Below, in pieces: positions 134 to 20,078 of a stretch of 20,078 nt of DNA (positions are counted from its first letter, which is position 1; each line of letters begins with the position of its first letter). The translations under genes and the position numbers were made by a program. The stretch lies in the UHGV virus genome UHGV-1836283; one strand, given 5' to 3'. The DNA is from a virus. The notes beneath the pieces were generated by a model that was not told the DNA's origin, ran no database searches, and was given only the letters and a program-made list of their open reading frames with translations.

Positions 134-168
134 AATTCTCCCAAAGAATAACGTGCAAGCAGCAAAAT

Positions 169-186
169 ACGCCCCATAAGGGGCGT
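169..186. terminator. Bidirectional rho-independent terminator-like hairpin just downstream of tfa
   Basis: Perfect 7-bp GC-rich stem ACGCCCC/GGGGCGT with 4-nt loop. A-run before and T-rich run after on the plus strand; on the minus strand the stem is followed by UAUUUUG, 5 nt after the tfa stop. Confidence 0.6.
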
Positions 187-190
187 TTAT

Positions 191-1494: not shown

Positions 1495-1497
1495 GGA

Positions 1498-3546: not shown

Positions 3547-4091
3547 GCCTCCATCGCTTTATCAGGTTTGTCGGTGTTACTGCCCTGACCGTTCTCTCTG
3601 TGACGATGCCCGTTATAGGCAAGCCGCATCGCTGACATGGTGGTACCGCCGGAGTCGCACAGGTCTTTCACCTGTCCGGTCACTTCCAGGTCCATTTCAA
3701 AACGTGCTCTGGGCGCATTGCGAAACGTGATCGTTTTACCTGCACCGTCCACCACGATCCCCTCCCGGGTCAGCGTCACAGACTGCCCCTGATCGTCATA
3801 GACAGCCACCTCACCCGTCTGCAGCCCTTTCAGGCGGTAGCGCCGGTCCGACACCGTAACAACCACCGCATGAGAACGGTCGCCATCCGGAAACAACACC
3901 ACCGCTTCCGCACCGCTGTTTGCCCTTGCGGTAAAACCGTAGGGTTCAAGATGTTCAACCCCGGCTTTGGGTTCACCGGCAATCAGGGACACATCCACGG
4001 TCTGACATTTCGTGGCGGCACTGATGCTTTTCACCACTGCCCGCCCAATCAGGCCGAGGAGTTGTCGCTGCATGGCTTCAATCGTCCTCAT
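3543..4091 (-). CDS. Baseplate assembly protein V / central spike (Mu gp45-like)
   Basis: 182 aa; gpV-like N-terminal region; 4-nt overlap with the next gene. Confidence 0.8.
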   Translation of the reverse strand: MRTIEAMQRQLLGLIGRAVVKSISAATKCQTVDVSLIAGEPKAGVEHLEPYGFTARANSGAEAVVLFPDGDRSHAVVVTVSDRRYRLKGLQTGEVAVYDDQGQSVTLTREGIVVDGAGKTITFRNAPRARFEMDLEVTGQVKDLCDSGGTTMSAMRLAYNGHRHRENGQGSNTDKPDKAMEA

Positions 4092-5170: not shown

Positions 5171-6495
5171 TGCACTGGCACCTTCAGAGGGATCACCGGC
5201 ACAAAGCCGGGATGCGTAATGGCATTACGCCGGATAATGTCCGCGTCACGCGCCGCGTTATCAAACCAGGTCGCCGCCAGCACCAGCGCGGGTAAAACTT
5301 CATCCGGTGTGCGCTGAATGATCCGTGCAGACTGTTCAAGGCGCGTGTTGATATCCGCATTCAGATCTGCTTTCACCCGGCGCAGCGCCAGAAACAGCGC
5401 ATCGCTGGTTGTACGGGACAACTCCTTATCAATTGCCGTATTCAGTGTGTCGCGAATGTCAGTCAGTTCTTCCCACGTCGGCAGGTCAACCGTGTTTTTC
5501 ACCGCCGGTGCATTGTTCAGTGCCGGATGCGTGACGGAAGGCCAGCCAGTGCTCTGCGCGGGTGTTGTTGCCTGCCCCACTGCGGCATTCTGCATCACCG
5601 CGGAAGTTGTTGGCGCAGGCAATCGGGTGACGGCATACGCCGCTTCGCTGATTGCGGTCGTACGAAGGGTGCTGGCAACCACGTTACGCTGCTGCGTCGC
5701 CGTGGCGGTGGTTTTACTGTCCGTTTTCCAGACGCCGCGCGGTTGCAGATCGCTGCCGAGGCTGACACCGGAAAGCGTTTTGATCATGGTGACCAGGTCG
5801 CTGGCGTTACCATAAAGGCGTTTCCCGGTACGCCACATTTTCTGCACCTGCTCAACGAAATTTTTGCCTGACGATGGCGGCGGCAGAAGTACCGAGATAT
5901 CCCCCTGCAACAGCCTGGCGGCATCCGATACGGCAGAATCCACCACTTTCATCGCATCAGAAATATACCCAAGCATTGTGCCGGCATTACCGACGACGTC
6001 GTTCTGCACAAAATCTGCCACGCCATCGATACTGAAACCACTGAAACTGTCACTGATGCAGTCATCCAGTGCAGAACAGGATGACATCAGCGTCTGCGCC
6101 GTCGCCGCACCTGATGTGGGGTAAGAGAGTTCTCCCGCTTCGACAAACTTCAGGTCAAAGCGGACAATACGTCCTTCACTTTTCGATGTGCTGACCCGAA
6201 CTTCCCCGTCAACACAGACTTTCAGCTCACCGTAAGTCGGATGGACAAGCGTGCCGGGACCGGGTTTATTCAGCGCTTCAATCAGGCGATCGCGCTGGTC
6301 AAAGCAGTCATCTCCCACCACATAAGCTGTGATGGACGGGCGGAAAGTGACTTTTCCCAGATCTTCGGTATAGGGTTTGTCGCGGTTCGGATATTCGTGT
6401 GTTTCCACACGACGGCCGGTTCCCGCACTTTCTTCTTCAACCTTAAACGGCACACCTCGAAATGACGCGTCCTGAAGTCTGTCTTTCCACGTCAT
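5167..6495 (-). CDS. DNA circulation protein (Mu gp43 / N-like); start moved to the internal ATG at 6495
   Basis: N-terminus MTWKDRLQDASFRGVPF… from the ATG at 6495 is preceded by GGAG. The ORF-track start at 6537 would make the protein run through a terminator hairpin. Confidence 0.8.
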   Translation of the reverse strand: MTWKDRLQDASFRGVPFKVEEESAGTGRRVETHEYPNRDKPYTEDLGKVTFRPSITAYVVGDDCFDQRDRLIEALNKPGPGTLVHPTYGELKVCVDGEVRVSTSKSEGRIVRFDLKFVEAGELSYPTSGAATAQTLMSSCSALDDCISDSFSGFSIDGVADFVQNDVVGNAGTMLGYISDAMKVVDSAVSDAARLLQGDISVLLPPPSSGKNFVEQVQKMWRTGKRLYGNASDLVTMIKTLSGVSLGSDLQPRGVWKTDSKTTATATQQRNVVASTLRTTAISEAAYAVTRLPAPTTSAVMQNAAVGQATTPAQSTGWPSVTHPALNNAPAVKNTVDLPTWEELTDIRDTLNTAIDKELSRTTSDALFLALRRVKADLNADINTRLEQSARIIQRTPDEVLPALVLAATWFDNAARDADIIRRNAITHPGFVPVIPLKVPVQ

Positions 6496-6510
6496 ATAAA
6501 CTCCGTACAT

Positions 6511-6532
6511 AAAAAATCCCACCGGAGTGGGA
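6511..6532 (-). terminator. Intra-operon rho-independent terminator/attenuator between tape measure and gp43 genes
   Basis: Minus-strand RNA: stem TCCCAC/GTGGGA (loop UCCG, extendable by wobble pairs) followed by UUUUUUAU, 23 nt after the tape-measure stop. Confidence 0.5.
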
Positions 6533-6555
6533 CTCATTAACAGATTAATTTTTCA

Positions 6556-8391
6556 TTACCTGCCAAAGCGCGTATAGCCAACATCATGGCTGACATCAAA
6601 ACCGCTGGATCGCGTTTCCATAACCCGCATACCCGGAGGCGAATTCACAAAAGAGACCTTGATCTCACCATCAACTTTTGGCGCAGAAGCTTTGTTAATC
6701 ATGAAGGGATTTGGGCCTGTGGCACCGGAGGCGTTGTTTGACTGAGCCAGATCTACCGCCGGATAAGGTTTGTATCCCCGCGCCGGTATTCCCGTCCCAT
6801 AAGCATCATAAGCACCCGCGCCCCACTGCGCAGAGTTAATGGCATCGACCGTGTCACCGGAACTGTCGGTAAACCATTCAATAATCGGCTTCAGCTTATC
6901 CCACATATCCTGAAACCACTTAACAACCGGTCCCCAGTTATTGATCACCATCCCCAGCGGCGACCAGGCAAAAACCTTCTTCAGAAGTTCCCAGCCAGCC
7001 TCAAAATAAGGACTAATGGTTTCCCAGAGTTTCTTAAAATAAGGTCCGACAACATCCCAGTTAGTGATAATTAATCCCGCAGCCAGGGCTATCGCCGTCG
7101 CAATCATGCCAATCGGCGTCATCGACATGATCCTGCTGACAATACTGATGGCACCGCCAACGCCCATCAATCCCAGTTTCAGAATCGCAAGACCGGCAGC
7201 AAGCCCGACGACGCCGCGAATAACCCGGGGATTTTCATCCGCAAACTTCGTGAATTTCTCCCCCAACTCCCCCAGCCATTGCGTGATATTTTTGGCGTCA
7301 CCAGAAAATGCGCCGCCAATAGCCGCAAGGCCGTTAGTTGCGGTCCCCGTCATTGCCTCCCACAGGTTGGACAGCGTACCAAGCTGGGCCTGAACACGTT
7401 TATTCAGGCTGGCCTGTTTATTCATCTTCTGCTGGATCTGATCGTAGCCATCCTTTCCTTTATCGATTAGTGCATTGACCACCTGAAGGGTTTCGGCATC
7501 ATCACCAAATATTGCCTTAAGTACACCTGTTCGCTTAACGTCGGTCAGTTTTCGCAGCTTTGCCAGTTGCCTGAACATGTTATCAAGACCGCCAAAACTC
7601 CCTTTGCCGTCAGTAAAATCGAGCTGCACTCCGAGTTTCTGGCGGGCCATGACTTTATTGACGTCCCTGATTTTCTTAACGCTTAATCCGGACTGAATAA
7701 CTTTTCGCAGGGCATTACCTGCCGACTCCCCGTTCATCCCCATCTGATCCATCATGACGCTGATAGGGGCAAGGCTCTGTGCAGCCTGAAGACCGTCCTT
7801 ATTCACCATCTTCAGAACAGAACTGGTTTTAGTGAAGAAGGACAACATGTTGGTATCGTCAACGCCCAGATAAAACGCTTTCTGGATAGTGTCGAACAGC
7901 CCCATCATGTCTTCTGACGCCGTTCCGGTAGCATCCTGCATCTTTGCAGCAAACTCGGCTGCCGATTCCGGTGTTTTTTTCAGTTGTACCGCAAGATAAG
8001 CTGTCGCTTTACCCACACCACCCAGAATGTTTTCTGCTGGGATCCCCTGACGCACCAGCATCTGCATCATGTTCTGGAAATCAGCCGTTGTACCGGGTAG
8101 CTGGTTACCCAGGCCAATAGCCAGTTTATTGATGTCCTGAAAGCTCTTTCCAACCTCGCCGTTCGCATCCATCATGGCGACTTTCAGCCCGGTGGCGGCG
8201 TTTTCCTGATCGGCATAAGATTTCAGGGAAAGCGTCAGACCCGCTGCCAGTCCGCCACCAAGCGCCAGCCCACCCTGTGACGCTTCTTCCGCCTGGCGTT
8301 TAAATCCCCGGATTTTCTTTTGCATTTTCGACAGCGCCGGAGAAAGCCTGTCGACACCGGTGATCAACGCCTTAAGCTCAAATTCAGCCAT
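6556..8391 (-). CDS. Tail tape measure protein (Mu gp42-like)
   Basis: 611 aa; Ala/Gly-rich hydrophobic segments (GVVGLAAGLAILKLGLMGVGGAISIV) typical of tape measure proteins; located right after the chaperone pair. Confidence 0.85.
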   Translation of the reverse strand: MAEFELKALITGVDRLSPALSKMQKKIRGFKRQAEEASQGGLALGGGLAAGLTLSLKSYADQENAATGLKVAMMDANGEVGKSFQDINKLAIGLGNQLPGTTADFQNMMQMLVRQGIPAENILGGVGKATAYLAVQLKKTPESAAEFAAKMQDATGTASEDMMGLFDTIQKAFYLGVDDTNMLSFFTKTSSVLKMVNKDGLQAAQSLAPISVMMDQMGMNGESAGNALRKVIQSGLSVKKIRDVNKVMARQKLGVQLDFTDGKGSFGGLDNMFRQLAKLRKLTDVKRTGVLKAIFGDDAETLQVVNALIDKGKDGYDQIQQKMNKQASLNKRVQAQLGTLSNLWEAMTGTATNGLAAIGGAFSGDAKNITQWLGELGEKFTKFADENPRVIRGVVGLAAGLAILKLGLMGVGGAISIVSRIMSMTPIGMIATAIALAAGLIITNWDVVGPYFKKLWETISPYFEAGWELLKKVFAWSPLGMVINNWGPVVKWFQDMWDKLKPIIEWFTDSSGDTVDAINSAQWGAGAYDAYGTGIPARGYKPYPAVDLAQSNNASGATGPNPFMINKASAPKVDGEIKVSFVNSPPGMRVMETRSSGFDVSHDVGYTRFGR

Positions 8392-8566
8392 GTGTGCGTT
8401 TCTCCTGCTCTATCCTGTTTGCCTGACTGACCAGTAAGGGAATTTCACTGATCGGCATATTCAGCAATTCGAAAGGATTAATGCGCCAGTAACTGGCGCA
8501 GTCAAAGAAGCGATCAGTGAGGTATTCAGCCGTCAGGCCTGGAGGAAAAAACCGGCCACAAGCCAC
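8384..8566 (-). CDS. -1 frame extension of the tail assembly chaperone (gpT-like part of a G/GT-type fusion)
   Basis: 60-codon ORF in the -1 frame relative to 8533..8802, overlapping its 3' end and the tape-measure start by 8 nt; a slippery heptamer lies in the overlap. Confidence 0.6.
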   Translation of the reverse strand: MACGRFFPPGLTAEYLTDRFFDCASYWRINPFELLNMPISEIPLLVSQANRIEQEKRTHG

Positions 8567-8802
8567 GCCGCTGCATTCAGGTCTGCCGGAGACATCTGGT
8601 CGACAGAGCTTTGCGGCACTTTCGCCAGCCGCACGATGTATTTCGATACCACATGCGCCAGAAGTCTGACGGACTCATCCTGATTCATCTGGTAGGGATA
8701 TCCCAGCTCGCGGACATCTTTCCCGGTGGGCTCATCAAACTCCAGTACGGAGAGTGTCTCGCCATGAGCGGTAATCGGTTTCTTTAACTCAAGCTCTTTC
8801 AT
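8533..8802 (-). CDS. Tail assembly chaperone (Mu gp41-like)
   Basis: 89 aa acidic protein between tube and tape-measure genes; start overlaps the tube gene stop. Confidence 0.75.
   Translation of the reverse strand: MKELELKKPITAHGETLSVLEFDEPTGKDVRELGYPYQMNQDESVRLLAHVVSKYIVRLAKVPQSSVDQMSPADLNAAAWLVAGFFLQA
8545..8551 (-). other. Programmed -1 ribosomal frameshift slippery site U UUU UUC
   Basis: Minus-strand TTTTTTC in X XXY YYZ register of the chaperone frame (…GCC GGT TTT TTC…), 10 nt before its stop. A -1 shift gives …VAGFF-PPGLTAEYL…. Confidence 0.6.
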
Positions 8803-9158
8803 TACTGGTAATCCCCTTCTTCACCGTGGAACTCAAGATCAACCGTGCCTTCTTCGGCATTATGGTTCGCTTCGCCGTGCAGCCAGGCAGACGACAGTAC
8901 ATAGACCTGACCGTTCGCCAGCTCGGCAGTGATTGTCATCTCATCAGACGAGGTGATTTTGTTCACCGGAAAATTCTTCGGCACCTTGAAGGTCCCTTTG
9001 ACATAAGGCGCACGGTGAGTTTCCTTGCGGTCCACTGAACCGTCCAGGCCGATGATGTCATCATTGACCGTCCTGTTCATGGGCACCTCAATGCCGCCGG
9101 TCAGCGATAGCTGCTGACCGTCAATTTTGAAATAACAGGTTCCCCCGATACGGGCCAT
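8802..9158 (-). CDS. Tail tube protein (Mu gp40 / M-like)
   Basis: 118 aa; directly downstream of the sheath gene with start/stop overlap. Confidence 0.85.
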   Translation of the reverse strand: MARIGGTCYFKIDGQQLSLTGGIEVPMNRTVNDDIIGLDGSVDRKETHRAPYVKGTFKVPKNFPVNKITSSDEMTITAELANGQVYVLSSAWLHGEANHNAEEGTVDLEFHGEEGDYQ

Positions 9159-10654
9159 TATGCAGACTCCTCTGAATACTGAAGACGGAACTGGTTAACC
9201 ACGGCAAAGACACGCAACTGGTTAACATAGTCAGGCGGGAACAGCGTGTTCAGGCGGTTCGGATCGCTGGCATCACGCTCCACAACCAGGTACTGCTTAA
9301 ACAGTTCGTAGTTTTCCACGATCCCCGCACGCTCAAGCTGACGGTAGGTTGCCAGCAGTTCCCCTTTGATCACCGCCGGGGTGACAATCGCCTGACCGGG
9401 ACCAAAGCGGGTACCGTCACTGGCAAGCTTGTGACGCCCGTACTTACTGGTAATGACGGATTTCAGTTTGCGCAGTACATACGCGCTGGTATGCAGTGTC
9501 TCACTGTCGAGGTAGCTGTTATCCGCAACCCCGTAAGCGTTTTTCCTGTACGTGGTGACATCACGCTGAATGCGCAGTACCCCGCTTTCGACATACGCCG
9601 TTGCCACGCCATGAGACAGCAGGGTCTGTTGTTCGGTCATCGTGAACCGTTTCCCCTTCGGCGCAGGCAGCATACCCACCATCTCACCGGTCTGCGTGGG
9701 ACGTGCCGGATCGTTGCGGATAAACACCGCTGCGCGGGCGGTACGGCTGGCTGCCAGCTCGTCGGCAGGCGTCTGGGTCTCTTTTTCGTACCCCGCCAGG
9801 GTGATGTGCTGCTGGTTAAACTGGTCACCTGCGTTCACCAGTTCTGACAGTGTGCCGGCCTTTGCCGTATACACATGACCATACAGCTGACGCGCATAGC
9901 TCCAGCGACCGCTGGTATCGTTCATCTCGGTCACCAGCGTGTTAACAGAGGCCGTGTCGTTGAACGGCAGACCGATATAATCAAACGGCTCATCCGCCAT
10001 TGCAGCCACCGCGCCGGTGAGAACCGGAGCGCCCGTTCCGGCGGTCCCCGTCGCCACGGCAATCTGTACGCCCGCTGGCAGCACTTCGCCCCCACCGAAG
10101 CCGTAGTAATTGAGGCTGACAGGAATTTCATTCCCGCAAAGCCCCTTATGGCGAGCGGTCAATGTAACCACACCAGCCGAAGATGAGGCCGTAAACGGCA
10201 GGGCCGGAACGGCATTGATGGCATCTTTGATACTGCTGGCAATCGTCGCGACGTTATCGCCGTTGGTCACCGGTGCCTGCACGCGGGTACGTCCCACATA
10301 AACATTCACCGTGCCGGTTTCGGTTGCTGCCCCGGTCACCGTCAGCGTAACTGTTGCCGCCGCGCCTGTGGATTCAGGAACGGCAATCACATACAGCTCG
10401 CCAAACGGGTCGGTCTGGCGATAAGCCTCGACCATACGCGCCAGCTGACTTCCCGCACCACAAATCTGGCGTGCATAGTCTGCCGACGGCATCAGTACCA
10501 GACTGTTGGCAACAATCTCTGCACCGTTATTGGCATGACCAATCAGCAGCGATGCTCCGCTGTCCTGTGCAGTATTCGCCGCCTGGTTATCCATTTCCGC
10601 ATAAAACAACGGAACCAGCGTATTCGACGGAATGGTGTTAAAGCTTATCGTCAT
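9158..10654 (-). CDS. Contractile tail sheath protein (Mu gp39 / L-like)
   Basis: 498 aa; sheath-like sequence and conserved sheath-tube-chaperone-tape measure order. Confidence 0.9.
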   Translation of the reverse strand: MTISFNTIPSNTLVPLFYAEMDNQAANTAQDSGASLLIGHANNGAEIVANSLVLMPSADYARQICGAGSQLARMVEAYRQTDPFGELYVIAVPESTGAAATVTLTVTGAATETGTVNVYVGRTRVQAPVTNGDNVATIASSIKDAINAVPALPFTASSSAGVVTLTARHKGLCGNEIPVSLNYYGFGGGEVLPAGVQIAVATGTAGTGAPVLTGAVAAMADEPFDYIGLPFNDTASVNTLVTEMNDTSGRWSYARQLYGHVYTAKAGTLSELVNAGDQFNQQHITLAGYEKETQTPADELAASRTARAAVFIRNDPARPTQTGEMVGMLPAPKGKRFTMTEQQTLLSHGVATAYVESGVLRIQRDVTTYRKNAYGVADNSYLDSETLHTSAYVLRKLKSVITSKYGRHKLASDGTRFGPGQAIVTPAVIKGELLATYRQLERAGIVENYELFKQYLVVERDASDPNRLNTLFPPDYVNQLRVFAVVNQFRLQYSEESA

Positions 10655-10808
10655 CGGTATTCACCTTTTTATTCACGCGCCGGATATCACCCGCTGCTTC
10701 ACGGCGCAGCCAGTAGTTGTTCTCGTCAACATTTCGCCCTTCGGCGGGCAAAAGGTCGCCGCGGGCAGGGTCAGGCACTGACCGCCCTTTAACAGGTTTG
10801 ACAAACAT
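10638..10808 (-). CDS. Small hypothetical protein (56 aa), below the ORF-track size cut-off
   Basis: ATG at 10808 preceded by GAGGA at 5-nt spacing, 8 nt after the upstream gene stop; TAA at 10638-10640 overlaps the sheath start by 17 nt. Translation MFVKPVKGRSVPDPARGDLLPAEGRNVDENNYWLRREAAGDIRRVNKKVNTDDDKL. Confidence 0.45.
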   Translation of the reverse strand: MFVKPVKGRSVPDPARGDLLPAEGRNVDENNYWLRREAAGDIRRVNKKVNTDDDKL

Positions 10809-10816
10809 GAGGATCC

Positions 10817-11377
10817 TCAGGAAGGAAGGGTTATTTCGGTGTGATGTTCGATATCGCCGTCAGGCCCGTTACCGGGCTCGAGATAATCAACATCAATCGC
10901 CAGCGTTTGCAGTTCATCCAGACTGTTCAGATCATCCTGCTGGCGGGTATCGTCTTCAGTCAGCTCGCTGATGACCGAAAAATCGAACTGATAAATCAGC
11001 TCATGACGATTCAGATCCAGCAGCGTGCCGCCGTCATAGGTAATCGGGTTACCACACGCTTCCGGGTTCCAGCCCAGCAGAGCCTTAAAGAGCATCTGCC
11101 GGACATCGTCCACCACATCATACGAGGCAAACTGACCGCGCTCATCACGCCCGTTACTCAGTATGACAACCACGGAGAAGCCCTCTTTCAGCTCCTGCCA
11201 GTAGTCGGTCTGGCTTTTGTTTTCTCCCGGAGAGTCATCACCCGGTACCACATACGCCGCCGGGAGTCTCAGCTTTCCGACCTCCGGCAGATTTTTGAAC
11301 TGTGCCGCGCCTGCCACCCGGTTTTCAAAATACGGACAGCGGGCACGCAGTGCAGCAATAACGGGCGTCAGTTTCAT
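10817..11377 (-). CDS. Mu gp37-like virion protein (DUF1834-type)
   Basis: 186 aa; recognised family pattern and position upstream of the sheath gene. Confidence 0.65.
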   Translation of the reverse strand: MKLTPVIAALRARCPYFENRVAGAAQFKNLPEVGKLRLPAAYVVPGDDSPGENKSQTDYWQELKEGFSVVVILSNGRDERGQFASYDVVDDVRQMLFKALLGWNPEACGNPITYDGGTLLDLNRHELIYQFDFSVISELTEDDTRQQDDLNSLDELQTLAIDVDYLEPGNGPDGDIEHHTEITLPS

Positions 11378-11880
11378 CTGTGTCGTCGCTCCGGCTTCAG
11401 TGATTTACGCAATTCCCGCGCCAGAAAATAGCGTGTCCAGCTGCGGTTCTTTTCAAGAGTTTCCACCATGAAGTTATTACGTGGAGCCAGTCGCCAGCCG
11501 CTGCCACCGGATGCACCACGATGATGGCCGCGACGACGCTTTGCCCCTCGCCTCACGCCATAGAACAAAAAAGCCGGATAAAAATCACCGGTGATACGGC
11601 GGTTTCCCTCTCCATTACGCTGGTTAGGGGCTATACGTGCCATAAAACCAGGGCGATGTTTACTGGCTCTGGGTACCATGTAACCAATTGAGCGAGCCAG
11701 GCGTCCGGTCTGATAACCGGGGTTTTCACCCGGTGCCGACCGCGCACGGCGCATCACCAGCCGACGGGCATCACGCATATGACGCTGACCAATCGTGACA
11801 AACGCCCGCCGGACATGGGCGCGGTTAAAGCGCATCTCCGCGGGCTGCTGAAAATCAACGTGCAAAAAGGAAGTCGTCAT
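11374..11880 (-). CDS. Virion morphogenesis / tail completion protein (HK97 gp10-like)
   Basis: 168 aa, very basic C-terminus; sits between head closure and tail genes. Confidence 0.6.
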   Translation of the reverse strand: MTTSFLHVDFQQPAEMRFNRAHVRRAFVTIGQRHMRDARRLVMRRARSAPGENPGYQTGRLARSIGYMVPRASKHRPGFMARIAPNQRNGEGNRRITGDFYPAFLFYGVRRGAKRRRGHHRGASGGSGWRLAPRNNFMVETLEKNRSWTRYFLARELRKSLKPERRHR

Positions 11881-12265
11881 TGTTGCCTCCGTGACTCTGC
11901 CTACATTCGCCCAGCTCCGTACACTCCAGCAGCAGAAAGCGCCGCGCTCCGTTCAGATCGCGCTGACGTTTCACCCGGTACACACTGTCACCGCAGACCA
12001 CCTCATAATCAGCGGTGATCCCCCGGCGGTAACGAATGGTGATGTAATGGGTGATGGCGTCTCCGGTCTGCGCGGTTTCCTGCCAGGTGGTGGCACTGGT
12101 CTGGATAACCTTCGCCCATGCCCGGAACGCAACCGGGTATTGAGGCTCCACGCCAAAGTTATCCGCGGGCATATCCACCCGCTGGCGGATCAGGACGCGT
12201 TTATTCAGTTCGCCGGGGTCCGGCAGAATGTAGGTTGCGCTGGTCTGCGCCTGACGAATTTTCAT
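11855..12265 (-). CDS. Head closure / head-tail adaptor protein
   Basis: 136 aa; family-like pattern (…AWAKVIQTSATTWQETAQTGDAITHYITIRYR…RFLLLECTE); follows the connector gene. Confidence 0.7.
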   Translation of the reverse strand: MKIRQAQTSATYILPDPGELNKRVLIRQRVDMPADNFGVEPQYPVAFRAWAKVIQTSATTWQETAQTGDAITHYITIRYRRGITADYEVVCGDSVYRVKRQRDLNGARRFLLLECTELGECRQSHGGNNDDFLFAR

Positions 12266-12585
12266 AGTGGTATAAGGCGATAAGGAACAACCAACCAGTT
12301 AAAACTCATTGGCAACTCCATTTTCTCAACGTCTGTAACCGTTGAGCGGTTTTCGTAGAAATGGCTGACAAGTAGCAGAAGCGCCAGCTTCACATCATCA
12401 GATATCACAAGCCCATCAGGATCATCCGCAGGCCTGTCATCTGCGGTTGCATACAACTTACGGTTAAGGAAGTTTTCCGTACGACTCTGAGCGGCCTTAC
12501 CAAGCAGTTCAAGCAACTCATCTTCATCAGAGAAATCATCATCCAGACGGAGCTGAAGCTTAATCTCTTCCATTTTTAACAGCAT
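12262..12585 (-). CDS. Head-tail connector (gp6-like); start moved to ATG at 12585
   Basis: MLLKMEEIKLQLRLDDDFSDEDELLELL… matches the gp6-like connector family. AGGAGG lies 4 nt upstream of the ATG at 12585; the ORF-track start at 12630 runs through a hairpin and A-run. Confidence 0.7.
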   Translation of the reverse strand: MLLKMEEIKLQLRLDDDFSDEDELLELLGKAAQSRTENFLNRKLYATADDRPADDPDGLVISDDVKLALLLLVSHFYENRSTVTDVEKMELPMSFNWLVVPYRLIPL

Positions 12586-12595
12586 AAAACCTCCT

Positions 12596-12637
12596 GTGCC
12601 CGCCAGAACGCGGGCACAAAAAAACCGCATTACGCGG
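12596..12637 (-). promoter_or_regulatory. Hairpin pair after the major capsid gene: weak terminator plus strong stem abutting the next RBS
   Basis: Minus-strand RNA: CCGC-GUAAU-GCGG + U7, then 8-bp stem GUGCCCGC/GCGGGCAC, then AGGAGG-UUUU-AUG of the connector gene. Confidence 0.45.
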
Positions 12638-12663
12638 CGTGCTGTATTACGTAAAAAGACTAA

Positions 12664-13893
12664 TCAACCACCAACGCTACCTTTCCCCACCAGCGCTTTA
12701 ATGGCAGAGGTGTCTTCCAGGATACAGTCAAAACGATGGAAGGCCAGAAAACCGGTCTGATCATATTCCGCGTAACGCTCAACCAGACGTTTAAGAATCA
12801 TGTATCGCACACGACGGATAATGAAGCGATCAAAGTCACCACAGAACATGAATTTTTTACCCGCCCCGATATCATCAATTTCCTGATCAATGACATACGG
12901 TACATTCAACACTGAAGCAGGTGCCACACCAACAATATCCGGCAACCATAAAGGGCGTCCCTGACCGTCTTCCATCTCACTGATCAGTTTCAGCGTATTA
13001 TCGTTAAACGCCAGGCGGAATTTCGGCCCGCGACGATATGCAGGATCAATGCTGTGTTTCAGAGCCAGAATTTCCTGCCACTTCACCGTATTTGCCGCGG
13101 CAGTCTGTGTTGTGCCGGTCACAGATGCGACCAGCCCTTTGGGTTGTTTAGGCGTACCAGCACCAGTTCCCTGAATCAGATAACGGGCTTCACCACGACC
13201 AATACGTTCAGCAATACGACGGGCAAGATAAGCTTCCATATCGATCGCGCTGTCCTGCAGCAACTCATTAGACACACGAATGATTTTCGATGTCATTTTG
13301 AGCGCCCCAAGACTTCCCATACCGAAATCGGTGTCTTCTTCACCGGCTTCTTCATTTTCGCCCAGCAGAACACCAACTTCGGAAGTACCATCAGCTGTTG
13401 CCCACTCCATAGTGCGACCGTCAGAAGTGGTAAGAATCTGCGCCACACTGGCGATGCCACCGTAGGACTTCATCTTCTCAACAACTTTCGCCAGGAATGT
13501 TTCTGGTACGGTATATCCGCCCTTTTCATCCTGAGCTACGCCCTGGGCACGAAGTTCACGCAACGCCTTTCGTTCTTCTGATGTCAGCTCACTGGCACCG
13601 TGACGCATCCACTTATCAAAAACCTGAGCTCGTTTCTCATCCTGTTGCGGATTGTTTTCCGGATCAAGATTCTGACGCTGCTCTTCCTCATTGCTTTCAA
13701 TGTACGCCTGATCCTGACGACGCAGTTCTTCTTCGCGTGCAATTCGTTCATCAAGCGCTTCCAGTTCGGATTTTGCTTTGTTCCACTCAGTGCGCTGCTC
13801 TTCCGTCCATGCGTTATCACCAATTTTTTCATTCAGGGCACGCATGTCAGTTGCGATAGTATTACGTTTCTGTTTCAGTTCATGCAGTTTCAT
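12664..13893 (-). CDS. Major capsid protein, HK97 family
   Basis: 409 aa; charged coiled-coil N-terminal region (delta-domain-like) and HK97-type body; preceded by AGGAA RBS. Confidence 0.9.
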   Translation of the reverse strand: MKLHELKQKRNTIATDMRALNEKIGDNAWTEEQRTEWNKAKSELEALDERIAREEELRRQDQAYIESNEEEQRQNLDPENNPQQDEKRAQVFDKWMRHGASELTSEERKALRELRAQGVAQDEKGGYTVPETFLAKVVEKMKSYGGIASVAQILTTSDGRTMEWATADGTSEVGVLLGENEEAGEEDTDFGMGSLGALKMTSKIIRVSNELLQDSAIDMEAYLARRIAERIGRGEARYLIQGTGAGTPKQPKGLVASVTGTTQTAAANTVKWQEILALKHSIDPAYRRGPKFRLAFNDNTLKLISEMEDGQGRPLWLPDIVGVAPASVLNVPYVIDQEIDDIGAGKKFMFCGDFDRFIIRRVRYMILKRLVERYAEYDQTGFLAFHRFDCILEDTSAIKALVGKGSVGG

Positions 13894-13903
13894 GATGTTT
13901 CCT

Positions 13904-14506
13904 TTACGCGTTAAGAAGGGTCAGGACGCGCTCACGCGCCATACGTTGATTAATGGCTTTCTGTAGCGCGCCGCTGTTGCGCGCCTCCTGCCATGCTTTC
14001 ATGGAGCGAACAGCCGAGTCAGCCTCCTGATAGGCAGGATATGTCACAGGACTGACATCCAGCAGACGGGAAAAGCGGGTTATCTCGCGAATAACAACCC
14101 CGTCCTCATCCTGATACCACTCCTCGCCGTCACGGGCGACACGGAAAGCAAAAGATGACTGGTTAATATCTCCACGTTGCATCGGGGCCAGCACCAGATC
14201 ACGAATGGTCTGTGTCTCCGGAGCCTGGATGTCATAGCGCAATCCGCGCTCATCAACTGAAAGATTCAGCGTGCCTGCTGCACTACGCCCAAGAATAAAA
14301 TTAGGATCGTGGTTAAACAGTGCGCGTACATCATCACCAAGCACATCGTCAAAAGCGCCGGGCCGGATGATTTCGCGGAATGAACCAAATATCAGCTCAG
14401 AACGACAGTCAAACACCGATCCATAACCGATAATGTGCGCAGGGTTATCGTCATGCCGCTCAGCACGCACCTCACCGCTGTAACAACGGATTTCACGGTC
14501 ATTCAT
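13904..14506 (-). CDS. Prohead protease, HK97 family; start moved to ATG at 14506
   Basis: HK97-family protease sequence (…AHIIGYGSVFD…). ATG at 14506 (MNDREIR…) has a GAGGGA RBS and overlaps the portal stop (ATGAATGA); the ORF-track start at 14563 lacks an RBS. Confidence 0.85.
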   Translation of the reverse strand: MNDREIRCYSGEVRAERHDDNPAHIIGYGSVFDCRSELIFGSFREIIRPGAFDDVLGDDVRALFNHDPNFILGRSAAGTLNLSVDERGLRYDIQAPETQTIRDLVLAPMQRGDINQSSFAFRVARDGEEWYQDEDGVVIREITRFSRLLDVSPVTYPAYQEADSAVRSMKAWQEARNSGALQKAINQRMARERVLTLLNA

Positions 14507-15725
14507 TGGTTTTTCCCTCATCTTTTTTTGGGGGCTTAAAATCTCCTGCCGGGTTAGCAGCATTCACGCTTACCAGCATCTCATCCAGCCCTTCAACCGG
14601 ATTCATATCCTCGAATGCGCGGGCCTCATTACGGCTCATCCATCCATCGGTAATAGCGAAGTGATAGAATTGCGCGCGCTCCTGCGGAGTTCCGCGTAAA
14701 AGCCCCGTCAGATTGAACCTGACGTAATACCCGGCGGCTAACTCAGCGCGGGTAAACAAGCGACGGTTAAGCTCCTGCTCCCAGTTCGTCACCCACGGCA
14801 TCATCGTGTAGCGGACAAACTGAATCGCCTGCGCAGAAATATTGGAGAAGGTGGCTTTTTCGAGGTCATTAATCATGTGCGCAGGAATATTGAAAATACC
14901 GGCAATCATTGAACGGTTCAGTTTCATCATGTCAATGATCTGAGCGTCAACTGGCGACACAGTCAGTGCCTTGTAATCCAGATCGGCTGGCAGCAGCATG
15001 GTTTTGTTTTCCTGGCTGCGTAACGCCTGCGATGCCTTCTGCCACTGATCTTTAAGCCAGCCCCAGCTGTCCTTATTGAGTCCGCTTTTAACGGATACTA
15101 TCCCCGCCGGACGGGCATTACCGCTGAAGAAGCTTTCTGTGTATTTCTGACCGCTCATCCCCATGCCTATTGTTTCGGCATGTTGCATAATCGGACTCAG
15201 CCCCATCTTCTGATTATTACCCAGCGCACGGATGTGGATCATATCGTCGGGGCTGATCGCAAACGCCCCATATTCGTTGTACAAACCGTAGGTGTATCGG
15301 CCACCAGTATTCATCAGCGTCGTTTCCCACGGCATACAGCAATCCAGGGATATGACTTCACCGCGACGATTACGTTTCACCCAGGTATACCCATTCCCCC
15401 AGCCAAGGATGTGACGTTGCTTCAGTTCGCGCCATTTGTAACTGGTTTGCCAGGTATTGGGCTCATCATGAACCAGATAAAACGCCGGATGATCGCGTGC
15501 GGGCTCAACCTTCCCATTGTGCCTGCGCATAACATGCAACGGCATCTGGGCAAGGCTGGAAGACAGGACATAGATACAGGAATACACCGCAGCCAGTTTC
15601 ATCGCAGTTTCAGGACTGACATAAACGTCTGCCCGGAACAGCCCATCAGTATCAACGGCATCCCCGGTTATCGGGGTGGAAGGATTCTCCAGTGATTTAC
15701 TTCTGAACAGAGCATCAAGCAGCAC
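14499..15725 (-). CDS. Portal protein, HK97 family
   Basis: 408 aa; recognised portal family; the start codon at 15725 is GTG. Confidence 0.9.
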   Translation of the reverse strand: MLLDALFRSKSLENPSTPITGDAVDTDGLFRADVYVSPETAMKLAAVYSCIYVLSSSLAQMPLHVMRRHNGKVEPARDHPAFYLVHDEPNTWQTSYKWRELKQRHILGWGNGYTWVKRNRRGEVISLDCCMPWETTLMNTGGRYTYGLYNEYGAFAISPDDMIHIRALGNNQKMGLSPIMQHAETIGMGMSGQKYTESFFSGNARPAGIVSVKSGLNKDSWGWLKDQWQKASQALRSQENKTMLLPADLDYKALTVSPVDAQIIDMMKLNRSMIAGIFNIPAHMINDLEKATFSNISAQAIQFVRYTMMPWVTNWEQELNRRLFTRAELAAGYYVRFNLTGLLRGTPQERAQFYHFAITDGWMSRNEARAFEDMNPVEGLDEMLVSVNAANPAGDFKPPKKDEGKTNE

Positions 15726-15876
15726 GCGTCCCCCTTCTGGCCATAGCCAGTGCGCCCACCAGCAGTAAACCGCCGGACAGCATCAGAGCCGGAGCCATAC
15801 CAAACTGCAGGTAAAACCCGCACGTAAGCAGGCCAAAACCAGCCAACCCGATAACATCAGCAATTAGTGATTTCAT
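15715..15876 (-). CDS. Small predicted two-helix membrane protein (53 aa) between terminase large subunit and portal
   Basis: ATG overlaps the terminase stop (ATGA); stop overlaps the portal start. Translation [53 protein letters not shown]: two hydrophobic stretches, basic C-terminus. No strong RBS. Confidence 0.4.
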
Positions 15877-17606
15877 AGAATTAAGAGAACATCGTCCGGA
15901 TCAAGAGATGAGAGGAAATCGTCGGGTTCTTTGAGCATTGCCCGACCGATCGCCATAATCAGTGCAACCGCACCATCGATTTTGTTTTCCGCCTGCTCCT
16001 TGACAGGCTTCACCACATCATCGTTACCCGGAATGGTTTTGCCGACCACGTTGCCGATACACCAGGTCATGATGGGATTGCCGTCATGATGAAAGCGCCC
16101 CGATTCAATCGCCGCTTCCAGCTCTTTCATCGGATCGGACATGTTGGTGTAGTTCTGAATGATGGTGATGGGGTTCAGGTCTTCATCAGCAAGGTCATGC
16201 GACAGCCCGGTCGCCCCGAAGGGGTCGATGGGTGACTCACTGACCGGGCTGATTTTGTTCGCCGCTTTGGCCTCCTCGAGGATGTAGCGATAATCCACCT
16301 CCGCACCAGCGGTAACAGTCAGAACGCCCATTTCCACCCATTTCTGAAAGCGTTCGGCTGTCCGGCGATCTTCATTTTTCTCGACGCTGTACACCGTGTC
16401 ATACGGTACCCAGAAACGCGGGGCCACACTGTAGTAATGCGTTTTACCGTCAATCTCGCGGGTATAAAGTCGCGCCATGCTGTTCATATCCAGCTTACGC
16501 GCCAGGTCAAAGGCCAGAATGCACGGCTGCCCCTCGAACTGCTCAAGGGTCAGTGATTTATCCTCGCAGCTCTGCCAGCTCACCAGGTTGAAATACGCCG
16601 AACGCGCCGACACCCAGATATTGAGGTGTTTTGTTTTAAAGACGTTTGCCAGACGGGCGTTATTTTTCGCACGCTGCTGCTGACTTAACAAAAATTCGCG
16701 ATAAACCGACACGCCAATATTCGGGTTGGCTTTTTCCAGCACCTGCGGGTCGGTCCAGTCATCGCCTTCGTCAACGGTATAGATGATCCCGAACAGTTCA
16801 TCGTTGGGTACCGAACCGTTGAGCATCTCGATAACTTCCCGCCGCTTGTCGTAGCACGGCCCCTCAATGTTGTACCCGGCGGTGGTGATGGCCCACATCA
16901 GTGGCTGACGTCGCGCCCCCATCCCGGTAAGCATCGTGGTATAAAGCGCATCGGTGGCGTGCTCGTGATATTCATCCACCACCGCACAGTGGGGTGATGA
17001 ACCATCACCGGGGTTACCGATCAGCGGTTCAAACCGCGCGCCATCCTCCGGACGGTTCATGTTTGAGGCGTTAACCTCAATCCCGAACGCTTCCGTCAGC
17101 ATGGGTGTGCGTTTACACATCAGTCGCGCCGGGCGAAAGACTTCCCACGCCTGTTTCTCTGTCGTGGCACCGGAATACACTTCCGCGCCAAACTCGTTAT
17201 CACAGGCAAAACAATACAGGGCGACACCGGCAGAGATTGCCGATTTGCCGTTCTTACGGGGGATTTCGGTATACACCTCCCGGAAGCGGCGCAGCCGGGT
17301 ACCTTTATTGACCCAGCCAAACGCACAGCAGATCACAAAGAGCTGCCACGGCTCCAGCGTGATGGGCATCCGTTTGAATGCCCACTCACCCTTGGTATGC
17401 GGCAACAGCTGAATAAATTTGGCGGCCCGTTCAGCCAGGTCCTTGTCGAAGCGGTAACGAAACGACTTACTTTTTTCCGCCATCAGGTCATCAAGATGGC
17501 GCTGGCAGGCCTGAATCACAAACTGGCAGGCCACAATCTTTCCGCGCACGACATCACGGGCATACTGATTGGCTGCATTTACGTTGGGGTAAGATTTCCG
17601 GCTCAT
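15873..17606 (-). CDS. Terminase large subunit
   Basis: 577 aa; Walker A-like motif EIPRKNGKS near the N-terminus; size and position after the small subunit. Confidence 0.9.
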
Positions 17607-17619
17607 GATTCGATGATTT

Positions 17620-18105
17620 TCAGATTGTCAGAAACGGGTTAGTGGCTTTCTTCTTCCCCGCCAGGCCAATCAGACGCTGGCGGCTGCTGGGGTCGAGTCC
17701 GAGCATTGCCCCCGTGCTGCTCATCTCGGACTCCTGTTCTTTTTTGGCGGTCAGCTCCGGATTTTTGACCATGCCGCCCATTGCACCGGTGATGGTGTTG
17801 CCCTGTCTGGCAATATTTTTCACGGCACGTCGCCAGAATTCATAGGCCACACACCACCGCTCAAGTACCGCCAGGTCAGTCACGCACAGCAGGCCCTGAC
17901 CGCAGAGTTCTTTGGTTGTCAGTTGCCACATGATCGTGGCGAGAGGGAGATCTTCTTCAGCGAACCACTCCGGTGGCTCAACACCTTTGATGGGCGTAAA
18001 AACAGGTTCATCTTTATTCAGGGCTCGCTTGCCGGGGTTTCCGGCCAGCGCCTTGCGCGCCGTTGGCTTGGGGCGACGCCCGGAACGCCCCGCCGTTCCA
18101 GCCAT
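17620..18105 (-). CDS. Terminase small subunit, P27 family; start most likely ATG at 18105
   Basis: P27-type N-terminus [27 protein letters not shown]; AGGAG lies 9 nt upstream of the ATG at 18105. The ORF-track start at 18114 is a GTG with no RBS. Confidence 0.85.
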
Positions 18106-18144
18106 ATGCGGCACTCCTGGTTAAATTTCATTTTTCGCGGGTAT

Positions 18145-18204
18145 AAAAAAACGATGGGGCGGGCAGTCCGGAAGACGTCAGGTCACAGGGATTTGACCCG
18201 CCCC
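18145..18204 (-). promoter_or_regulatory. GC-rich dyad with U-tract between HNH and terminase genes: candidate cos/packaging site or terminator
   Basis: 8-bp inverted repeat GGGGCGGG (18156-18163) / CCCGCCCC (18197-18204) around a 33-nt loop containing a nested GGTCA/TGACC dyad. On the minus strand it is followed by AUCG + U7. Confidence 0.4.
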
Positions 18205-18230
18205 TCCCCTCAGACAGTTGAGAATTATTA

Positions 18231-18581
18231 TCACTTTAACCGTTCACGGGCCGTCTTCGCCTTATGACACGGCCAGCACAGACTCTGCAGATTACTGTCA
18301 GCATCAGTGCCGCCATGCGCTTTAGGGATGATGTGGTCAACAGTTTTCGCCTCACGCACCACACCAGAACGCAGACATAACTGACACAGGCCTTTGTCAC
18401 GCTTCAGGACACGCGCGCGGATACTGTCCCACTTCGAACCGTAGCCGCGCTGATGACGGGATTGTCCAGGTTTGTATTGCTTCCAGCCTTCGCTTTTGTG
18501 GCTTTCGCAATAGCCTGACGGGTCAGTGGTGGTATTACGGCAACCTCGAGCACGGCAGGCTTTCGGGATTCGTGGCGGCAT
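18231..18581 (-). CDS. HNH endonuclease (terminase-associated type)
   Basis: 116 aa; Cys-rich N-terminus and HNH motif …DHIIPKAHGGTDADSNLQSLCWPCHKAK…; GGAGA RBS 9 nt upstream; immediately upstream of terS. Confidence 0.85.
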   Translation of the reverse strand: MPPRIPKACRARGCRNTTTDPSGYCESHKSEGWKQYKPGQSRHQRGYGSKWDSIRARVLKRDKGLCQLCLRSGVVREAKTVDHIIPKAHGGTDADSNLQSLCWPCHKAKTARERLK

Positions 18582-18665
18582 ATGTACTAATCTCCGATTT
18601 ATCCAAATTTAACTGCCATAATGCCGACATTCTCTGCCATTGTTGGCTCCGTTTATCCGTTAAAA

Positions 18666-18735
18666 GGGATATCAGTTAAGTTATCCCGTGTAGGGTATAA
18701 ACCATTATCAAAGCCACTCTGTAGGGAGTGGCTTT
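18666..18735. promoter_or_regulatory. Two terminator-like hairpins in the non-coding stretch between IS2 and the HNH gene
   Basis: Hairpin A: GGGATA(18666-18671)/TATCCC(18682-18687), followed by UUUUAA on the minus strand. Hairpin B: AAGCCACTC(18711-18719)/GAGTGGCTT(18726-18734), followed by TTTGT on the plus strand. Confidence 0.35.
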
Positions 18736-18758
18736 TGTAATGACAATAAAAAGCCCCG

Positions 18759-18799
18759 TAGACTGGCCCCCTGAATCTCCAGACAACCAGTATCACTTA
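18759..18799 (+). repeat. IS2 left terminal inverted repeat region (IRL)
   Basis: Matches the IS2 left terminus as I recall it; exact IR length not verified. Confidence 0.7.
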
Positions 18800-18849
18800 A
18801 ATAAGTGATAGTCTTAATACTAGTTTTTAGACTAGTCATTGGAGAACAG

Positions 18850-19215
18850 ATGATTGATGTCTTAGGGCCGGAGAAACGCAGACGGCGTACCACACAGGAA
18901 AAGATCGCAATTGTTCAGCAGAGCTTTGAACCGGGGATGACGGTCTCCCTCGTTGCCCGGCAACATGGTGTAGCAGCCAGCCAGTTATTTCTCTGGCGTA
19001 AGCAATACCAGGAAGGAAGTCTTACTGCTGTCGCCGCCGGAGAACAGGTTGTTCCTGCCTCTGAACTTGCTGCCGCCATGAAGCAGATTAAAGAACTCCA
19101 GCGCCTGCTCGGCAAGAAAACGATGGAAAATGAACTCCTCAAAGAAGCCGTTGAATATGGACGGGCAAAAAAGTGGATAGCGCACGCGCCCTTATTGCCC
19201 GGGGATGGGGAGTAA
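18850..19215 (+). CDS. insC: IS2 transposase OrfA (InsC)
   Basis: 121 aa [40 protein letters not shown]… with GGAGA RBS; the ORF-track start at 18805 is an upstream over-extension. Confidence 0.95.
19167..19173 (+). other. IS2 A6G slippery motif for -1 frameshifting (InsCD fusion)
   Basis: AAAAAAG at 19167-19173 in the InsC/InsD overlap. Confidence 0.8.
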
Positions 19216-20078
19216 GCTTAGTCAGCCGTTGTCTCCGGGTGTCGCGTGCGCAGTTGCACGTCATTCTCAGACGAACCGATGACTGGATGGATGGCCGCCG
19301 CAGTCGTCACACTGATGATACGGATGTGCTTCTCCGTATACACCATGTTATCGGAGAGCTGCCCACGTATGGTTATCGTCGGGTATGGGCGCTGCTTCGC
19401 AGACAGGCAGAACTTGATGGTATGCCTGCGATCAATGCCAAACGTGTTTACCGGATCATGCGCCAGAATGCGCTGTTGCTTGAGCGAAAACCTGCTGTAC
19501 CGCCATCGAAACGGGCACATACAGGCAGAGTGGCCGTGAAAGAAAGCAATCAGCGATGGTGCTCTGACGGGTTCGAGTTCTGCTGTGATAACGGAGAGAG
19601 ACTGCGTGTCACGTTCGCGCTGGACTGCTGTGATCGTGAGGCACTGCACTGGGCGGTCACTACCGGCGGCTTCAACAGTGAAACAGTACAGGACGTCATG
19701 CTGGGAGCGGTGGAACGCCGCTTCGGCAACGATCTTCCGTCGTCTCCAGTGGAGTGGCTGACGGATAATGGTTCATGCTACCGGGCTAATGAAACACGCC
19801 AGTTCGCCCGGATGTTGGGACTTGAACCGAAGAACACGGCGGTGCGGAGTCCGGAGAGTAACGGAATAGCAGAGAGCTTCGTGAAAACGATAAAGCGTGA
19901 CTACATCAGTATCATGCCCAAACCAGACGGGTTAACGGCAGCAAAGAACCTTGCAGAGGCGTTCGAGCATTATAACGAATGGCATCCGCATAGTGCGCTG
20001 GGTTATCGCTCGCCACGGGAATATCTGCGGCAGCGGGCTTGTAATGGGTTAAGTGATAACAGATGTCTGGAAATATAG
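19173..20078 (+). CDS. insD: IS2 transposase OrfB (InsD), normally made as InsCD fusion by -1 frameshift
   Basis: 301 codons with DDE-type integrase core (…WLTDNGSCY…[11 protein letters not shown]…); stop TAG at 20076-20078. Confidence 0.95.

Follow-up and report, generated by a model that had tools for sequence, protein, structure and literature searches.

The interval between the HNH endonuclease and small terminase genes of an IS2-interrupted E. coli prophage is very probably the cos site of an SfV/phiP27-type phage

The virus genome UHGV-1836283, of which a whole stretch of 20,078 nucleotides was analysed here (referred to below as the window), carries a gene for an HNH endonuclease directly upstream of the genes for the small and large terminase subunits, and the locus raises the question whether the short interval between the first two of these genes (18115-18230) holds the site at which the phage DNA is cut for packaging. 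The initial annotation had proposed a cos site at this place, pointing to the gene order and to a GC-rich dyad in the interval, and had offered an intrinsic terminator behind the HNH gene as the other reading of the same letters. The adjacency of HNH, terS and terL that it described was borne out by the open reading frames and their Pfam families, all three genes lying on the same strand:

18581 to 18231, minus strand: HNH endonuclease gene, 116 aa (Pfam HNH PF01844, E 1e-16)
18105 to 17620, minus strand: terS, small terminase of the P27 family (Pfam Terminase_4 PF05119, E 2.6e-21)
17606 to 15873, minus strand: terL, large terminase of the HK97 type (Pfam TerL_ATPase PF03354 and TerL_nuclease PF20441)
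15725 to 14499, minus strand: portal gene (Pfam)
14563 to 13904, minus strand: prohead protease gene (Pfam)

In the literature on cos phages, HNH-terS-terL adjacency is the characteristic arrangement. In the HNH protein of the window, a zinc ribbon (CxxxxC...CxxH) at the N-terminus precedes the HNH catalytic domain; the protein covers the PF01844 profile in full (1-47 of 47), and its catalytic motif is intact, residues D82, H83, N97 and H106 being invariant in alignment A1. Over its full length it matched structure 5H0M (E 3.9e-13), the PDB code of the GVE2 HNH nickase (PMC5304195), and it shares 35% identity with the HNH protein of phage Gamma (E 6e-17). A gene identical to terS is registered in RefSeq as 'phage terminase small subunit P27 family' with the ATG at 18105 as its start, and a further GTG lies in frame upstream at 18114. 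The product of terL comprises ATPase and RNase H-like nuclease domains and matched the crystal structure of HK97 TerL, 6Z6D, over residues 80-557 (E 3.6e-25).

Megablast against phage records found the Shigella serotype-converting myoviruses SfV, SfI, SfII and SfIV, Salmonella phage ST64B and a number of E. coli phages obtained by induction, all at 87-98% identity. A far closer match was provided by a prophage of E. coli WP4-S18-ESBL-09, which lies around 4.69 Mb in NZ_AP022098 and is 99.97% identical to positions 120-18758 of the window, with 5 mismatches and 0 gaps in 18.6 kb. This prophage, which is apparently complete, encodes an integrase, a Mu-like tail, an HK97-like head, terL, terS and HNH, and further carries a lysis cassette, a Q antiterminator and immunity genes. 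The module of terS, cos and HNH is widespread, with matches in 3029 of the 5426 complete E. coli genomes and up to 6 copies per genome. From about 18759 to its end, the window consists of the insertion sequence IS2, which starts 177 bp upstream of the HNH start; in the IS2-free prophage, the equivalent position separates HNH from the lysis genes, holin and Q antiterminator. The exact junction of IS2 and prophage was present in none of the complete E. coli genomes searched. The element is an E. coli prophage with its late operon interrupted by IS2, and, given the location of IS2 upstream of HNH, this particular copy may no longer be expressed.

The position of the cut could be approached through relatives whose virion ends are known. 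The minus strand of the window carries at 18156-18165 the 10-mer TGCCCGCCCC, identical to the cohesive end of SfI virion DNA. The SfI termini were read directly from virion DNA by run-off sequencing; against the prophage sequence, the reads left a gap of 10 nt, 5'-TGCCCGCCCC-3', and the authors concluded that SfI is packaged by the cos mechanism; the same paper terms the SfV cos only 'postulated' (PMC3636060). The cos of SfIV has been stated to be identical to those of SfI, SfII and SfV, and precise restriction fragments and cos packaging have been described for SfIV (PMC3851460). The record ends of the deposited relatives were joined and then aligned to the window. The SfI record closes with ...GGACTGCCCGCCCC and opens with GTCGTTTTTTT, its break falling directly after the cohesive end. 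The break of the SfV and SfIV records lies 7 nt upstream of the end mapped in SfI, between window positions 18172 and 18173, that of the SfII record coincides with the HNH stop, and the ST64B record is circular with an arbitrary origin; the deposited ends of the relatives are not all mutually consistent. The record of phiP27 contains a 10-nt misc_feature labelled 'cos-site', CGCCCGCCCC, on the same 10 alignment columns as 18156-18165, and the linear records of HK97, Edwardsiella phage EPP-1 and Bacillus phage Gamma all end at that column. The cut can be described by the following features (here and below, ^ marks a nick):

18156 to 18165, minus strand: cohesive end (cosN core) TGCCCGCCCC, identical to the mapped SfI end
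between 18156 and 18155, minus strand: gene-strand nick, placed by the ends of mapped relatives
18166 to 18169, minus strand: GGAC at -4 to -1, with the AC before the cohesive end invariant
between 18165 and 18166, plus strand: predicted lower-strand nick, in ...GGGCA^GTCC... of the plus strand

Since a gap was found in both SfI run-off reads, both 5' ends of that DNA would be recessed and its overhangs 3'. The ends of HK97 are likewise 10-nt 3' overhangs (PMC9410871; PMC11331095). By analogy, the cohesive ends of the window element are probably 3'-protruding, the polarity following from a gap, not an overlap, in the SfI reads and from HK97. The proposal that cos lies between HNH and terS was thus upheld by the presence of the SfI-mapped 10-mer and by the ends of phiP27, HK97, EPP-1 and Gamma on the same column. 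Judged by these sequence identities, the interval is very probably the cos site of a temperate myovirus of the SfV/phiP27 type, carried here as an E. coli prophage. The site as such is already known, from the mapping of the SfI ends in 2013 and from the annotation of phiP27.

HNH-linked intervals were collected from IMG/VR (80 loci, all of them close relatives), from a set with one genome per species (45 loci) and from phage records. The resulting alignment A2 holds 28 non-redundant sequences from Enterobacterales and HK97 and runs ungapped from -58 to +55 around the cut. Nine of its columns, G21, G22, G26, A31, A57, C58, G60, C62 and T76, are invariant (n=28), and it is through this conservation in relatives, not through the statistics of the dyad, that the interval is non-random. 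Apart from the cut itself, the conserved anatomy comprises the following parts:

18210 to 18230, minus strand: variable linker from the HNH stop to the cos core, occurring in two unrelated versions in close relatives
18197 to 18209, minus strand: G-box GGGGAGGGGCGGG, at -44 to -32 from the lower-strand nick, with G21, G22 and G26 invariant and fixed spacing
18190 to 18196, minus strand: TCAAATC motif, at -31 to -25, identical in HK97 in the same columns
18170 to 18189, minus strand: variable spacer, at -24 to -5, constant in length and free in sequence (n=28)
18145 to 18155, minus strand: A/T-rich joint, at +1 to +11, ATCG and then a T7 tract (18145-18151), with T76 invariant
18123 to 18144, minus strand: putative TerS recognition box (cosB analogue) ATACCCGCGAAAAATGAAATTT, at +12 to +33, assigned by the match between box type and TerS type

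The linker reads either TGATAATAATTCTCAACTGTCT or TAAGAACCAGTTCCCACTGCCA in relatives whose HNH proteins are 95-100% identical, and everything downstream of it is conserved. The G-box, which contains the promoter-proximal arm of the dyad (18197-18204), occupies a cosQ-like position and is a putative upstream cos subsite, the third subsite of the region. In the TCAAATC motif, A31 is invariant and A30 and A32 are conserved at 90% or more (n=28). When judged by eye, this motif matches the IHF site WATCAANNNNTTR only partially. The spacer holds the GACGTC palindrome at 18174-18179 and part of TCCGGA at 18167-18172, and close relatives differ there at a single triplet, CCCTG[TGA/CAG/CGG]CC. A conserved small hairpin in the spacer was considered and rejected, the short palindromes seen in several relatives being inconsistent and absent from the RNAalifold output. 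Directly before the cohesive end, the AC of columns A57 and C58 is invariant, as is G60 (28/28). Column T76 corresponds to +8; T-rich flanks accompany all 28 relatives, stem-less ones included, with T-runs 2-7 long.

The dyad that had first drawn attention to the interval exists as described. Its arms, GGGGCGGG at 18156-18163 and CCCGCCCC at 18197-18204, are 8 bp long, 100% complementary and separated by 33 nt; the dyad reported as nested between them resolves into two 6-bp palindromes, the TCCGGA and GACGTC already mentioned (18167-18172 and 18174-18179), and the U7 is seen on the gene strand, where AUCG and then U7 follow the stem (A-run 18145-18151 of the plus strand). Nevertheless, the dyad exceeds chance expectation only modestly: of 5000 dinucleotide-shuffled versions of the interval, 301 (6%) contained some perfect inverted repeat of 8 bp, and an all-GC one occurred in 13.5% of whole-window shuffles. 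The arm at 18156-18163 coincides with the cohesive end over 8 of its 10 bases, and the arm at 18197-18204 forms the G-box core. Across the 28 relatives, the eight dyad pairs were paired in 69.6% of cells versus 68.8% in shuffles, and registers slid by 1-3 columns gave 54-67%; a single pair had changes on both sides. Hence, no covariation between the arms was detected in these relatives against either shuffles or slid registers. The RNAalifold consensus energy of the interval amounted to -0.84 kcal/mol, and single-sequence folds, in which the G-rich box was often paired with the C-rich end, gave z-scores scattered around zero. By these comparisons, the dyad is very probably not a selected stem-loop but a by-product of having a G-rich box upstream of a cohesive end rich in C.

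Against this background, the reading in which the GC stem and U7 form an intrinsic terminator ending the HNH transcript, instead of or besides cos, can be weighed. Eight G-C pairs followed by AUCG and U7 on the gene strand have the general look of such an element. The RNA folding that had been put forward as a check was run with a divided outcome: the 67-nt hairpin segment alone reached -26.8 kcal/mol and z = -2.45, with 3 of 200 shuffles folding as well, and the interval as a whole gave z = -1.55. In 24 of the 28 relatives, moreover, six or more pairs join the G-box and the cohesive end in the minimum-energy fold, and T-rich sequence follows downstream. However, the loop is 33 nt long versus about 3-10 nt in usual terminators, and the U-run stands 4 nt off the stem (AUCG) versus the usual 0-2 nt; a terminator and promoter scan of 17400-18900 returned 0 sites on both strands, and an Rfam search of 17900-18800 at a permissive E-value returned two chance-level matches, both outside the interval. 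The near equality of observed and shuffled pairing and the weak consensus energy argue against a terminator as well, and HK97 possesses the same cos layout without stem or T-run. In lambdoid late operons, the downstream head and tail genes rely on transcription through this point, and a Q-modified polymerase would pass over a terminator. A terminator function at the interval, the alternative offered by the initial annotation, is therefore unlikely. The dyad could also be functional in its own right, as a hairpin or cruciform or as symmetric half-sites for a dimeric packaging protein, in which case complementarity of the arms would be required. The perfect 8-bp complementarity within the SfV/phiP27 subgroup and the pairing of G-box and cohesive end in most single-sequence folds are in agreement with such a role. 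Relatives in which one arm has changed speak against it: CCCGCCTC stands beside unchanged GGGGCGGG in F1055, L106 and L108, and GGGGGAGGG stands beside CCCGCCCC in L111, relatives of the CGCCGCC type keep just a 5-bp GGCGG core in a shifted register, and HK97 has a pure G-run. Together with the lack of any pairing excess over shuffles or slid registers and a single-strand DNA fold, run as a cruciform test, of z = -1.30, this makes a required dyad very unlikely.

Two further readings concern the site as a whole. If packaging were by the headful (pac) mechanism, the interval would be no more than a pac region or an intergenic spacer like any other. No supporting evidence was found for this reading, and the restriction and end-sequencing data of SfI give defined ends (PMC3636060), as do the precise restriction fragments of cos-packaged SfIV (PMC3851460); the TerL of the window is of the HK97 cos type and the order of HNH, terS and terL is typical of cos phages, so that headful packaging is hardly conceivable here. 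A more serious reservation is that the site may be cos by descent and yet functionally silent, the relic of a crippled prophage in which IS2 severs the packaging genes from the late promoter and the lysis cassette. The insertion at about 18759, where the IS2-free prophage joins HNH to the lysis genes, holin and Q, and the absence of the IS2 junction from every complete E. coli genome searched are consistent with such a fate. On the other hand, the packaging and morphogenesis ORFs are all intact, and merely 5 substitutions separate the 18.6 kb from the IS-free prophage, which indicates that the IS2 insertion is recent. Moreover, cos acts in cis, and the terminase of a related co-resident prophage could still cut it, and an antiterminated polymerase may read through IS2. 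A silent relic is on balance unlikely, and the preferred reading is that of a cos site of the SfV/phiP27 type.

Downstream of the cut, the box at +12 to +33 occurs in several types. Type A is ATACCCGCGAAAAATGAAATTT, with variants in phiP27, L117 and L137, type B is ATCGCCGCAGGTTAGAAAAC, type C is ACGCGCCCAAAATAAGAAAC, and HK97 has a box of its own. These four box types, three of the P27 family and that of HK97, correspond one-to-one with the types of TerS in all 28 relatives whose terS could be scored, and the pairing is independent of the type of cohesive end: the end CGCCGCCTCA is shared by box types A and B, and the end TGCCCGCCTC by types A and C. A mosaic of this kind would be expected from a TerS recognition site beside a recombination joint, and the TerS of the window probably binds the box at +12 to +33. 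In HK97, the minimal TerS site extends from +15 to +29, with a G:C pair at 21 and an A-tract at 24-29 as essential elements (PMC11331095). The position of that site carries CTAACCCGATTTTTT in HK97, and the window has TATACCCGCGAAAAAT at +11 to +26; the likeness of the box to the HK97 site is one of position and composition only and may be taken as an analogy. The TerS proteins themselves are dissimilar. No similarity was detected between the TerS of the window and HK97 gp1 (hhalign probability 0.07%), the former belonging to PF05119 and the latter having no Pfam family, and neither the single TerS sequence nor a profile of 7 TerS sequences found a match in the PDB. As P27-family TerS lacks detectable similarity to HK97 TerS, the TerS-DNA mechanism of HK97 is not transferable by homology. 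A residue-by-residue transfer of the HK97 TerS-DNA contacts was dropped, the TerS profiles being without similarity.

From these elements, a course of cleavage can be proposed. On concatemeric DNA, TerS would bind the box at +12 to +33 (18123-18144) and would bring TerL and the HNH protein into place at the site of cutting. The two strands would then be nicked at a distance of 10 bp, the gene strand between 18156 and 18155 and the plus strand between 18165 and 18166, freeing 10-nt 3' cohesive ends (TGCCCGCCCC and its complement), and packaging would start on the terS side and continue up to the next cos. The HNH protein is known to stimulate cos cleavage by terminase (PMC11331095; PMC9410871), and the possibility that HNH and TerL cut one strand each was left open in the 2024 paper on HK97 TerS (PMC11331095). 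The HNH enzyme of phage Gamma, N.phiGamma, nicks at AC^CG / CG^GT (PMC3592412), and the same nick site, AC^CG / CG^GT, is given for the GVE2 HNH protein (PMC4027164). The predicted lower-strand nick lies in the invariant AC^YG, which is AC^TG (plus strand CA^GT) in the window and AC^CG (CG^GT) in phiP27, HK97 and Gamma; the cohesive end of Gamma begins at GTAC^CGCC. Because the nick falls in the nick site of homologous nickases, the HNH protein suggests itself as the lower-strand nickase. By this analogy, it is conceivable, at a little less than an even chance, that the zinc-ribbon HNH protein makes the plus-strand nick at AC^YG and TerL cuts the other strand. HK97 gp74, which lacks the zinc ribbon of the window HNH, has been reported as non-specific (PMC3592412), and for this reason the strand assignment to HNH is weaker for HK97 itself. 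If true, a model with HNH on the lower and TerL on the upper strand would answer the question which nuclease cuts which strand.

Comparison with known systems places the site more narrowly. The phages SfI, SfV, SfII, SfIV and ST64B show the same order of HNH, cos, terS and terL and an identical TGCCCGCCCC, and from the G-box to the ribosome-binding site of terS the phages of the SfV group are identical to the window or differ by 1-3 bases. The window differs from them in that it represents an E. coli prophage with IS2 inserted into the late operon upstream of HNH; its 21-nt linker is of the SfV/SfII and not of the SfI/SfIV type. No functional difference between the cos of the window and that of the SfV group is evident. 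In phiP27, an Stx2e phage and the type phage of the 'P27 family' of small terminases, the G-box, TCAAATC, the spacing and the GGAC before the nick are as in the window, and its TerS is likewise a member of PF05119. The first base of its cohesive end, however, is C and not T (AC^CG versus AC^TG), the sequence of its spacer differs, its TerS box is the variant ACACCCGCGAAATTAAAAATTT, and its TerS is more distant, with a local alignment score of 225 versus a self-score of 488.

The cos of HK97 resembles that of the window in having a G-run and TCAAATC, a spacer of equal length, AC before the nick and a C-rich 10-mer, all aligned ungapped, and downstream a box of a GC-core and A/T-tract with TerS at +15 to +29; its TerL is homologous to that of the window, and gp74 is 38% identical to the window protein in the HNH core but is devoid of the N-terminal zinc ribbon. 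In contrast to the window, the cohesive end of HK97 is CGCCGCCAAA, there is neither a perfect dyad nor a T7, about 250 nt (versus about 20 nt in the window) separate the HNH stop from the G-box, and TerS (gp1) has no detectable sequence similarity to the TerS of the window. In Gamma, GGGGCGGG follows the HNH stop, and then exactly 31 nt ending in AC and the C-rich end CGCCGCCCC, a 9-mer that is repeated at both ends of the record and is 9 nt long versus 10 nt in the group of the window. The TerS of Gamma belongs to the P27 family (TIGR01558) and its HNH protein has the same domain layout as that of the window; the host, however, is Gram-positive, the downstream box is different, and the AC^CG specificity was measured for the Gamma enzyme and not for the HNH of the window. 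The cos region of GVE2 is arranged similarly to that of Gamma.

With the cosQ-cosN-cosB arrangement of lambda, the window site shares a functional analogy only. In lambda, too, an element upstream of the staggered nick site is joined by a region downstream, beside the small-terminase gene, at which the small terminase binds, and late transcription passes through cos. It has, however, a 12-nt 5' overhang and no HNH, is cut by the unrelated Nu1/A terminase and needs IHF and R-sites, features of which none is present in the window. A cos of the lambda type was rejected for the window, as the relatives' end is 10 nt, the terminases fall into PF05119 and PF03354/PF20441, and HNH is present. The cos of the window belongs to the P27/SfV subgroup and is HK97-like in its working, its TerL and its HNH, but not in its TerS.

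The likenesses to Gamma and GVE2, to the P27/SfV group and to HK97 led us to a tentative generalisation, to which we give appreciably less than an even chance: the cos sites of HNH-dependent phages may have a three-part layout in common, in which HNH would nick the AC^YG strand and TerL the other. The proposed parts are the G-box with the (T)CAAA motif at -44 to -25, the invariant AC^YG nick site that opens a C-rich cohesive end of 9-10 nt, and an exchangeable TerS box at +12 to +33. No published description of such a shared three-part layout was found in the literature examined, and this layout across families, along with the coincidence of the HNH nick site, might be the sole new part of the present analysis.

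About the cos site itself, nothing new has been learned. The annotation of the locus is nevertheless settled, positions 18156-18165 being the cohesive end of a packaging module that is very common among E. coli prophages, and a linearisation point is fixed for genomes of this phage type, the deposited relatives of which are cut at four different places. For packaging specialists, the by-products are a G-box of fixed geometry, a TerS box that is swapped together with terS, and a lower-strand nick that coincides with the nick site of homologous HNH nickases; together, they reduce the assignment of the two strands to their nucleases to a simple strand-specific nicking experiment.

The cos layout of the E. 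coli prophage was found to be the same in two Gram-positive phages carrying zinc-ribbon HNH nickases, Bacillus phage Gamma (genome ends L151:441-500 joined to L149:1-90) and GVE2 (L150:130-200). In this layout, GGGGCGGG is followed by 31 nt with AC at its end and then by a C-rich cohesive end. The 9-nt terminal repeat of Gamma, CGCCGCCCC, has its first base exactly at AC^CG, the known nick site of this phage's own HNH protein (PMC3592412).

The deposited genomes of the SfV-like phage group are opened at four different linearisation points around cos, among them the following:

SfV (U82619) and SfIV (KC814930): record break 7 nt upstream of the end mapped on SfI virion DNA
SfII (KC736978): record break at the HNH stop codon
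ST64B (AY055382): record break just before the terS ribosome-binding site

Because these points differ, the ends of deposited records alone are not reliable evidence for the termini.

HNH homologues with 66-81% identity from various Enterobacterales (L107, L112, L114, L115, L120, L124-L129 and L132) were followed by no recognisable cos, and the gene runs straight into another downstream ORF instead. A Providencia metagenome-assembled genome (L116) does have a cos-like site, whose box is of type A, but no intact terS was found within 140 nt after this site. All of these loci may represent other arrangements or decayed prophages.

Several further features were observed around HNH and cos in the window:

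18184-18186, minus strand: single triplet in CCCTG[TGA/CAG/CGG]CC, a hot spot of variation in the spacer
18210-18230, minus strand: segment directly after the HNH stop, present in two versions among relatives (22 nt, positions 1549-1570 in loci L023-L102)
18710-18735: AAAGCCACTC / GAGTGGCTTT, the arms of a perfect 10-bp inverted repeat around a 6-nt loop, after which the plus strand reads TGT
18759-20078, plus strand: IS2 element with IS3-family orfA and orfB, left end TAGACTGGCCCCCTGAATCTCC

The two versions of the segment after HNH, TGATAATAATTCTCAACTGTCT and TAAGAACCAGTTCCCACTGCCA, are unrelated and were revealed by comparison of relatives with 95-100% identity in HNH. The insertion point of IS2 lies 177 bp upstream of where HNH starts. 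In the prophage of E. coli WP4-S18-ESBL-09, which is otherwise 99.97% identical, HNH-terS-terL are preceded by the lysis cassette and the Q antiterminator; in the window, IS2 cuts these three genes off from them. The junction between IS2 and prophage was absent from all complete E. coli genomes of the collection searched. Flanked by the start of HNH and the end of IS2, the inverted repeat resembles a terminator oriented opposite to the late genes; the terminator scan (17400-18900) made no call there.

Mosaicism at cos involves a box downstream of the cut (window 18123-18144; columns 80-101 in the alignment of 28 non-redundant cos relatives), which is exchanged jointly with terS. The four box types were concordant with terS in 28/28 relatives with a scorable terS, and this joint swapping followed neither the type of cohesive end nor the HNH gene, which places a recombination joint at about +1..+11 from the cos cut.
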